The notes under the pieces are model-generated. The model made no database searches. It was not told where the DNA came from and saw only the letters and a program-made list of their open reading frames with translations. Positions 32,207 through 34,508 of a stretch of DNA of 40,420 nucleotides are shown piece by piece. How positions within the stretch are numbered: position 1 is the first letter of the stretch; each line of letters starts with the position of its first letter. The stretch is from Promethearchaeia archaeon (lineage in GTDB: Archaea > Asgardarchaeota > Lokiarchaeia > Sigyniarchaeales > SOKP01), in NCBI GenBank assembly GCA_029856145.1, contig JAHQWK010000010.1:1-40420 (forward strand). The letters are read 5' to 3'. Position numbers and translations under genes: made by a program.

Positions 32207-32884
32207 TTAAAACTTATATTTGTAAATTGCATTTCGAATTTTCTTTGCAGCCATATTTGGGTTTTTTGCTCGAGTAATCGCTCCACCTACAATGATAATA
32301 TCTACTGGATAAGCTAATATGTTAGGAATATCAGAAACTCTAATTCCTCCTGCCACTGCTAATTTTGGATGGGCTCGTAGCCGTTCTACTAATTCTAATT
32401 CTAATAATGGTGCTCGTCGTGATGTTTGGCGATCTAAACCGCTATGGACTAAGGCATAATGTAATTTTGTATCTTCATATTTAAGGTCTATTAGACCTGC
32501 TAACCTAATAGCTGGTGATCTTGACATTATAAGGTCTGCCATAATTTCTACATGAAAATCATGTGAAGCACGTAAAGCTTCTTCAATAGTGACGTCGTAA
32601 GCATCGGCAAGTATTGTAACAATATCGGCTTTCGCTTGAGCAGCCATTCGCACTTCAAGATATCCTGCATCAGCAGTTTTTAAATCAGCACAAATTAACT
32701 TGTCAGGGTGAGCCTCCTTTAATATTTGAACGACTCTAATACCTTCGGATTTTATTAAAGGAGTTCCAGCTTCAATAATATCTACAAAAGGAGCTACTTT
32801 TTTTGCTAGTGCCAGAGCTTCATCTAAAATTTCAAAATCCAAGGCTACTTGTAGCATAGGCAGTTGTTGCTTCATTTTATGCAT
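32207..32884 (-). CDS. hxlA: 3-hexulose-6-phosphate synthase (OMPDC/HUMPS family)
   Basis: 'LQVALD', 'IEAGTPLIK', 'ADLKTADAG', 'AVAGGI', 'IVGGAIT'. Confidence 0.85.
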   Translation of the reverse strand: MHKMKQQLPMLQVALDFEILDEALALAKKVAPFVDIIEAGTPLIKSEGIRVVQILKEAHPDKLICADLKTADAGYLEVRMAAQAKADIVTILADAYDVTIEEALRASHDFHVEIMADLIMSRSPAIRLAGLIDLKYEDTKLHYALVHSGLDRQTSRRAPLLELELVERLRAHPKLAVAGGIRVSDIPNILAYPVDIIIVGGAITRAKNPNMAAKKIRNAIYKYKF

Positions 32885-33195
32885 TTTCTTTTTTTACATT
32901 AGTTCTTATTACTAAATTAAAATTTGAAAATTTAAAAATCTAATTTCATAGTTAGTATTCGCTGAATTTTATAATAGTAATATACAATAATTAATATTTG
33001 TAAAAAATAGAAGCTAAATAGAAAAAATTAATCTGATATTTCCAAATTAATGAAAATAACTAAAAATTGAAGTAAAATGTTATTCTGAAAAAGAAATGTG
33101 AATAAGGATTAATAAATTATAAAAACAATCCTTTTTAAGATCCTTTTGCTTATTTTTATTAAAGAATATCATAAAATAAAACAACGTGAAATATA

Positions 33196-33453
33196 GTGGA
33201 TAAAGATAAAGTTAAACAAGTTCTCGAAAAAATACGTCCGCAACTCCAAATGGATGGTGGAGATGTAGAACTCGTATCAATCGAAGATGATGGAACTGTA
33301 AAAGTGCGTCTGATGGGCCATTGTGCAGGTTGTAAATAGCTCTATCTCAGAGCTGTTAATCAAATGCACGCCCAGCAGACTATAAAATTCGGTATCGAAC
33401 GCGCAATTAAACAATTCGTGCCCGAGATTAAAGAAGTAGTGGCTGTTCCATAG
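33196..33453 (+). CDS. NifU/Nfu-type Fe-S cluster carrier, join(33196..33333,33364..33453), 75 aa after splicing
   Basis: Hand translation from GTG 33196: MDKDKVKQVLEKIRPQLQMDGGDVELVSIEDDGTVKVRLMGHCAGC | MHAQQTIKFGIERAIKQFVPEIKEVVAVP*. Matches the NifU-C consensus (IRP-L-x-x-DGGDVE...G-x-CxxC-x5-T-L-K-x-GIE). Absent from the ORF track because of the in-frame TAG at 33337-33339. Confidence 0.93.
33334..33363 (+). other. 30-nt bulge-helix-bulge (tRNA-type) intron in nfu mRNA
   Basis: Exon helix GUGCA(33323-27)/UGCAC(33365-69); central helix GGUU(33328-31)/AAUC(33358-61); bulges GUA(33332-34) and AAA(33362-64); intron stem AAUAGCUCU/AGAGCUGUU with AUCUC loop. Cuts after the 2nd nt of each bulge give an in-frame TGT|ATG junction. 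Confidence 0.88.
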
Positions 33454-33683
33454 TAAATCAATACAAATATTTCCTAATTTTTTTATTTTAATATATTTTA
33501 CATTCTCTTTCCTTAAATCTTCCGAATATACTATATCGTTCCGAAAAAACAAGTAATTTAAGTTATAACTTAACTCATAGATTTTGGGATAAAAACCTAA
33601 TCCATATTTCGTTATATTTCGATTAAATTTTTCACATACTTGATGCACTGTTGAAAAATAAAAAAAGAAAATTTTTTTTGCTC

Positions 33684-34508
33684 TTAGTTTTGAAATTGTT
33701 TTAAATAATTCTTCCTTCCTTCTTCGTACATTTCTAACATTTCTTCAGGAGTAAAGTTTGCAAGAGCTTGATCTGGAATACCTGACTGCCCTGCCATTAA
33801 GCTAACATTCTCTGCATTCTTGGCCAACCATTTCATAAAAATAAATGCCGGTAAATCTTGCTTTTTTGTGACTTCAAGATACTTAAAAAACTCAGCTTCA
33901 GCTTTATCGAGTTCTCCAATATCGAAATAACTCCAACCTAACTGGTTTCCTAAATTGGGTTGCCATCCATTTCGTTCAATTTCTAGACTTATTTTATTTA
34001 TATCTTGTTTCAGTTTTTCAGGATCCTTTTTATCCAATGGTTTAGGCTCTTGAATAGTTGGTGTTGATTCACCTTCGATAAATCCGAAATCTCTAGCTAC
34101 TGCGTATGAATGTCCATAAAATCTCGCATTTAATCTCATGATTGTTTCAACACCAAACTTTTTGATATCTGATAACTTTACTGTTCTTTTTAAAGGTTTT
34201 AATTGTCCTGTTTTATAGGATTTTTTCCACTGTTTTGGTTCTCCTGACCAAATCCAAGCTAGTTTCATTTTTTTAGGTGTGATATCATATACGATGTTAT
34301 AGTCTAATTTTCCATGTGATAATTTAAATTCCACATAGAATTCTCTATCAATATCTTTTTTCGTTTTATCAGGAAATACATGATTTATAAATGTATAATC
34401 TATATTCTTTGCTTGTTCTCCAAATCTAACTTCCCACATTTCTTTTGATTTCTTTAAATAATCTTCATTTAAGAAATAACTTACATAGCGTGTATTTTCA
34501 GAACTCAT
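33684..34508 (-). CDS. hypothetical protein with one TPR-like motif
   Basis: 274-aa ORF; 'NQLGWSYFDIGELDKAEAEFFKYLE'. Confidence 0.7.
   Translation of the reverse strand: MSSENTRYVSYFLNEDYLKKSKEMWEVRFGEQAKNIDYTFINHVFPDKTKKDIDREFYVEFKLSHGKLDYNIVYDITPKKMKLAWIWSGEPKQWKKSYKTGQLKPLKRTVKLSDIKKFGVETIMRLNARFYGHSYAVARDFGFIEGESTPTIQEPKPLDKKDPEKLKQDINKISLEIERNGWQPNLGNQLGWSYFDIGELDKAEAEFFKYLEVTKKQDLPAFIFMKWLAKNAENVSLMAGQSGIPDQALANFTPEEMLEMYEEGRKNYLKQFQN

Follow-up and report, generated by a model that had tools for sequence, protein, structure and literature searches.

Exon–exon pairing beside a putative spliced BHB intron in the nfu gene of a Lokiarchaeial genome

In a stretch of 40,420 nucleotides from a Promethearchaeia archaeon (the window), the gene of a small Fe-S carrier appears to be split by a short insert, and the coding sequences on the two sides of the insert can pair with each other. 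Is the insert a maintained splice substrate, and are synonymous codons in the exons selected for the RNA structure around it? NifU-C carriers (Nfu/NfuA; PF01106) bind their cluster through a CxxC motif, and exon 1 stops at the second Cys of this motif, here CAGC. With the intron read through, the PF01106 match reaches 78.8 bits over positions 1–67, above the cut-off and with the CxxC present, and this gene (33196–33453) is the sole PF01106 (NifU-C) match in the genome. The intron junction is placed unambiguously by alleles such as L034, and predicted removal of the intron gives a 75-aa Nfu with 2 residues different from intron-less orthologs. For an intron-less ortholog, this stand-alone form scores below the cut-offs that NCBIfam sets for NfuA or NifU of full length. 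The coordinates of all parts are collected in Table 1. An Rfam covariance-model search of 33000–33700 returned no match up to E=1. The divergent neighbour (32207–32884, minus strand) is a 3-hexulose-6-phosphate synthase that matches TIGR03128 at its cut-off, and an antisense ORF of 123 codons (33277–33648, minus strand), gene-called in 1 of 10 assemblies, overlaps the intron and is probably a shadow ORF.

Table 1 Parts of the split nfu gene in the window, and candidate coding introns elsewhere in the same genome.
Feature	Position	Strand	Basis or remark
nfu exon 1, codons 1–46	33196..33333	+	Single NifU-C domain Fe-S carrier; Pfam PF01106 positions 1–42, E 3.6e-18
Extended exon–exon helix, 5' arm, codons R38–G41	33308..33318	+	Folding and comparative tests
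CAUU bulge, 4 nt, separating extension from core exon helix	33319..33322	+	Sequence, fold
Core exon helix, 5' arm GUGCA	33323..33327	+	Paired cells 98.8% over 17 alleles
BHB central 4-bp helix, exon strand GGUU	33328..33331	+	Paired 98.5%
5' bulge, 3 nt, GU/A, predicted cut after 33333	33332..33334	+	BHB geometry
BHB intron, 30 nt, phase 0, in-frame TAG	33334..33363	+	Sequence, fold; 17 alleles at site
Intron hairpin, 9-bp stem, AUCUC loop (33344–33348)	33335–33343/33349–33357	+	
BHB central helix, intron strand AAUC	33358..33361	+	Allele comparison
3' bulge, 3 nt, AA/A, predicted cut after 33363	33362..33364	+	BHB geometry
Core exon helix, 3' arm UGCAC	33365..33369	+	Fold, allele comparison
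Extended exon–exon helix, 3' arm, codons A49–T52	33370..33380	+	Fold, comparative tests
nfu exon 2, codons 47–75 and stop	33364..33453	+	PF01106 positions 44–67
Candidate introns (genome G000) in the genes for mutase B12 subunit, FAD oxidase, mvk, uppS, pyrG, rnhB, rps3, csp and one unnamed gene	C19:57732, C2:161153, C32:34945, C3:203065, C18:61155, C23:64816(-), C8:31453(-), C3:195615(-), C6:11627(-)		

The insert carries the features of a BHB intron, namely a 4-bp central helix with two 3-nt bulges on opposite strands, flanked by an exon helix and an intron helix. At the same site, between codons 46 and 47 (site B), we collected 17 distinct introns of 29–33 nt, covering all three length classes, from class genomes, from a metagenome pattern search with free wobble positions and from look-ups of truncated Nfu proteins (L100, a truncated duplicate of L103, was excluded). 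The central helix is paired at 4/4 positions in 16 introns and at 3/4 in one. The wobble base of G45 and its intron partner show perfect three-state Watson–Crick covariation (U-A in 8, C-G in 7, A-U in 2), the core exon helix contains one double change from A-U to G-C, and the A44 wobble base is paired in 17/17 intron-bearing alleles vs 23/48 intron-less ones. Over the whole structure 86.7% of cells are paired, with 17 double-change cells and 0/500 shuffles performing as well, compared with 20–39% paired in slid controls; for the intron-bearing alleles, the RNAalifold consensus recovers the BHB unaided together with covarying intron pairs. Every complete allele with the intron has an open exon 2, in which the differences are mostly synonymous; between the window allele and alleles L096 and L147 there are 10 synonymous and 0 non-synonymous codon differences in this exon.

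An assembly error was rejected, since the identical intron is found in 10 other independent assemblies. Assemblies derived from SRR26215674-77, SRR6056591 and ERZ25073472-98 contain the gene. Among the 136 class genomes with nfu, an insert at this site occurs in one other genus, and no further site-B insert appeared when 400 genomes of the phylum were searched by pattern. Pattern matches from metagenomes (L095, L097) and from the phylum-wide search (four: L182 and L185–L187) lacked a BHB or an nfu context and were dropped as chance.

The nfu insert is, from this comparison of alleles, a maintained splice substrate, as the sequence-only reading had argued, as opposed to a chance insertion into a gene that has died, because the BHB is kept in 17 alleles, covariation is perfect at one central pair and exon 2 is intact. 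The case leans more on the BHB itself than on the longer exon pairing from which it was originally made. The opposite view, that there is no splicing and that the insert kills nfu, is bypassed or read through, or forms a hairpin serving mRNA stability or regulation, draws on the possible dispensability of nfu, since about 25 of 161 class genomes lack a match (many of them incomplete). All 17 introns place a stop in the unspliced reading, the stop types vary and many alleles frameshift, on which grounds read-through as Sec or Pyl was rejected, and the three length classes rule out read-through in general. In all three classes the product is regained when the intron is taken out at base 2 of the two bulges, and we know of no other reader of the exact 4-bp/3-nt BHB geometry with covariation; with exon 2 intact besides, a locus without splicing is very improbable.

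The split also leaves a trace in protein databases. About 35 Nfu proteins of 46–56 aa (clusters P0001, P0003, P0055 and P0092) end at or just after the CAGC motif, and those whose DNA was read are unspliced read-outs; the two full-length members of these clusters are distant intron-less genes, and no protein among those checked equals the spliced Nfu product. Because split genes are annotated as 46–56-aa fragments, Asgard gene inventories are underestimated.

Several further observations concern inserts in nfu. The loop of the intron hairpin ends in UC in 17/17 site-B introns and, by eye, in about 8 of 10 candidate introns of unrelated genes of the same genome; the shared loop end is possibly a recognition element or the mark of a common source. 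A second site lies after codon 20, between QMD and GGD, where hairpin inserts of 29–31 nt occur in three genera (L032, L033, L036 and L037 in genomes G068, G085, G046 and G028). These have a relaxed BHB, in which 3/4 or 4/4 positions of the central helix are paired and the exon helix is shifted by one or two mismatches, and no allele among those examined carries both sites. In one genome nfu is duplicated in tandem (L038, G013:C1:3652433-3653071); one of the copies is shorter by about 19 codons at the N-terminus and has CCGC as its motif.

The sequence-only reading had further claimed that the exon flanks pair well beyond the core exon helix, and in the window this pairing is exact. The arm GUCUG-A-UGGGC opposes GCCCA-G-CAGAC to form ten Watson–Crick pairs (7 G-C, 3 A-U) and one mismatch, A33313·G33375, followed in the described order by the CAUU bulge and the core helix. 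The predicted fold of the region has an energy of -37.7 kcal/mol (z -4.06), a stability matched by 0/200 shuffles, and in the context of the whole mRNA the ten extension pairs have probabilities of 0.88–1.00. Five of the ten are dictated by the peptide, R-L-M-G opposite A-Q-Q-T, and the other five by synonymous choice. The extension duplex has an energy of -17.0 kcal/mol, a value reached by 0/5000 synonymous recodings run with the codon usage of the genome and with G/C-ending codons raised up to 3.5-fold (three G/C settings), and by 0/119 intron-less orthologs, the best of which has -13.0 kcal/mol. All six G/C-ending codons originally named in this helix co-occur in the window allele only, so the window is an extreme case. 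The modelled structure has an energy of -33.2 kcal/mol with the extension and -17.2 without it. Swapping in intron-less codons lowers the modelled probability of the core helix from 1.00 to 0.95 in the window, a small effect, and the extension increases this probability in 15/17 intron-bearing alleles. In the window allele the canonical BHB, at -33.2 kcal/mol, lies 1.5 above the lowest-energy fold, which has a slipped central helix and an energy of -34.7.

Is the extension, then, associated with the intron beyond this one allele? In intron-bearing alleles its duplex has a median energy of -8.7 kcal/mol, against a median of -2.2 for the 48 alleles that share the peptide class but lack the intron (p 4e-7 by Mann-Whitney test), and when each group is recoded with its own nfu codon usage, the mean z is -2.8 vs -0.18. 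The wobble base of R38 is paired in 10/17 intron-bearing and 5/48 intron-less alleles, and that of L39 in 11/17 and 9/48. On a tree built without codons 38–52, intron-bearing and intron-less alleles are interleaved, and the best tree shows 10 changes; the alignment behind it is short, at 183 columns, and its well-supported branches yield only 4 independent pairs, with which the test is not significant. Permutation within four clades gives P 0.00095 for a stronger extension with the intron, and 16/17 intron-bearing alleles are stronger than their nearest intron-less relative (comparisons that are not independent of one another). The claim that synonymous sites are selected for RNA structure is thus supported: the helix is stronger than its recodings and stronger than in intron-less alleles, also when stratified by clade.

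Covariation, which had been proposed as a check, bore out the helix in part. One extension pair covaries from both sides by synonymous change, the first base of L39 with the third base of Q51 (C-G in 7, U-A in 7; Fisher 0.012 vs 0.19 without intron), and both of its states are present in three clades, but the remaining extension pairs are without covariation. For the extension alone, 6/500 shuffles covary as well and slid registers score equally high, an arm-swap test is borderline (P 0.05), the extension does not appear in the RNAalifold consensus fold and its innermost pair is kept in 4/17 alleles. The pairs themselves vary among alleles: where codon 40 is Q or L, or codon 38 is K, the stem is built from other pairs, and the G of Q50 is mismatched in M40 alleles and paired where codon 40 starts with C. 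The constraint would seem, by these comparisons, hard on the BHB and the core helix and soft and variable on the extension.

Two other accounts of this association accept a real spliced intron. According to the first, the stem existed beforehand and only at such places did introns arise or persist, so that the extension is now unneeded. The protein itself supplies half of the extension pairs, the modelled effect on the core helix is small, archaeal introns have been repeatedly gained or lost (PMC2738675; bioRxiv 10.64898/2026.10.13.758758) and tRNA introns are located at splice-competent sites (bioRxiv 10.64898/2026.10.13.758758), all of which speaks for such a filter. A strong stem is also found in about 15% of intron-less alleles; six of these (L114, L118, L043, L119, L056 and L061) have stem energies between -9 and -13 kcal/mol, and in one clade the intron-less alleles exceed the intron-bearing one. 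Against a filter, the stem is kept though the rest of nfu differs by 8–24% among intron-bearing alleles, mostly at synonymous sites, the L39/Q51 pair occurs in both states in the three clades, and the intron-less sisters in the window's own clade are stemless, with energies of +0.1 to -3.2 kcal/mol. We regard a mere filter as unlikely, and note that ongoing selection and the gain or retention of introns only at pre-existing stems cannot be fully separated. L114, L118 and L043 (G130, G134, G145), the intron-less sisters of the intron-bearing L102, have stems of -10 to -13 kcal/mol and could, from their sequences, be candidates for recent intron loss or pre-adapted sites.

The second account attributes the association to shared ancestry or composition, with codons inherited together, or alleles that are just richer in G/C, and an extension incidental to the intron. 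The weak tree would permit a single origin, and GC3 outside the stem is slightly higher with the intron (0.29 in the rest of nfu, vs 0.23). The effect nevertheless persists after group-specific recoding and clade stratification, a U-ending codon is preferred where a U pairs, and the same excess of pairing is seen in unrelated genes of the same genome, described below; this account is improbable, and more so than a filter.

Composition also bears on the form in which the codon signal was first described, as G/C-ending codons in a window dominated by A/T endings. GC3 of the stem codons is 0.50 in intron-bearing vs 0.24 in intron-less alleles. The sequence-only reading would have failed if intron-less orthologs had the same codons, which in general they do not: they hold a mean of 1.0/6 of the named codons vs 3.2/6 in intron-bearing alleles. 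G/C ending itself was rejected as the signal, being nonsignificant inside the gene (6/13 in codons 38–52 vs 14/58 in the remainder, p=0.11) and a poorer predictor than pairing. The U-ending CGT of R38 is among the most constrained codons, with U favoured where pairing calls for U. Two of the named codons do not fit the extension: CAC (H48) belongs to the core helix, and the first CAG (Q50) contributes, as its third base, the G of the mismatch, unpaired in the window. The neighbouring ORFs have a GC3 of 0.17–0.23.

The pairing excess extends beyond nfu. The genome holds nine other candidate coding introns of 30–32 nt with BHB-like structure (Table 1), most of which split a recognisable motif. 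Exon–exon pairing exceeds that of synonymous recodings (p<0.05) in 7/9 candidates vs 3% of 300 control sites, and for the nine as a group the excess has p 2e-6, or 6e-5 for the distal part alone; the candidates were examined in this genome and had first been noticed partly by structure, so these values are subject to ascertainment. In the mvk and pyrG candidates a poor proximal exon helix is accompanied by a strong distal stem. These genes are independent of the history of nfu. A de novo genome-wide BHB scan without homology was too noisy, with 13,317 raw motifs; among the 1,562 candidates left by filtering, nfu ranks first by fold energy. The genome encodes two EndA-domain proteins and one RtcB. 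ARAGORN found only 19 tRNA genes in the whole genome, tRNA-Sec included, which is consistent with heavily interrupted tRNAs.

From the structure, its conservation, the covariation and the association with the intron we infer that the mRNA is spliced, which enzymes do it and what the extension is for, and we give the following reading a probability of roughly 70%. The nfu pre-mRNA would fold into a single long irregular hairpin consisting of extension, CAUU bulge, core exon helix, BHB and intron hairpin; EndA would cleave both 3-nt bulges behind their second base, and RtcB would ligate the exons and so restore the 75-aa Nfu. Because an mRNA is without a tRNA body, pairing between the exons would do the holding job in its place, before cutting and perhaps also between cutting and ligation. 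Codon choice is tilted toward pairing only in the alleles that carry the intron and supplies the five synonymously chosen extension pairs. More tentatively, and with the odds slightly against it, Lokiarchaeia may routinely splice many mRNAs with tRNA endonuclease and ligase; synonymous codons would then form exon–exon clamps that take the place of the tRNA body and keep the cut exons together for ligation, and the pentaloop with a terminal UC, common to these introns of about 30 nt, may be a dedicated recognition element.

If the preferred reading holds, the 17 site-B introns, the second nfu site and the nine candidates would, judged by their sequences, represent mRNA splicing by protein enzymes in the archaea most closely related to eukaryotes. 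The stem between the exons offers sequence evidence for live splice substrates, and it bears on what a coding mRNA uses in place of the tRNA scaffold. A helix of exon sequence beside a BHB is expected; its extent and the signal at the level of codons are new. The literature that we searched, with most subscription journals outside its coverage, contained no report of Asgard mRNA or coding introns or of codon constraint from an exon stem, and gave cbf5 alone as an archaeal coding-region BHB intron.

The cbf5 pre-mRNA of Crenarchaeota contains a BHB intron in its coding sequence (Watanabe 2002, as cited in PMC7714728; Yokobori 2009, PMC2738675) and is, as reported in PMC7714728, the only other archaeal mRNA case besides a UTR intron of Haloferax. 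Like the nfu intron, that of cbf5 is a short BHB intron within coding sequence at a functional motif, is cut between the second and third bulge bases, has a patchy distribution with gains and losses, and shows conservation in the part that pairs with exon sequence. The words "synonymous" and "stem" did not turn up when the text of PMC2738675 was searched, and the paper apparently contains no analysis of codon constraint from an exon stem. Splicing of cbf5 has been demonstrated, and that of nfu is predicted from sequence; the nfu intron differs further in its gene, in its Asgard host, in its phase 0 position directly after the CxxC and in sharing its genome with at least nine further candidate introns in coding genes. 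The 5'-UTR BHB intron of Haloferax volcanii HVO_1309 (PMC7714728) is likewise an mRNA substrate of the tRNA splicing endonuclease but, lying in a UTR, constrains no codons. Other NifU-C Fe-S carriers share the single domain and the CxxC; here the domain stands alone in 75 aa, and its gene is interrupted. The same motif, a similar size and the same inferred enzymes are found in the BHB introns of archaeal tRNAs, including the intron-rich tRNAs of Asgard archaea (bioRxiv 10.64898/2026.10.13.758758, which covers Asgard tRNA introns only and has no mention of mRNA in its main text), and the genome studied here has two EndA paralogues, as do 44/60 Asgard genomes of that study. In a tRNA, the cloverleaf holds the exons; in nfu, the coding sequence would have to.
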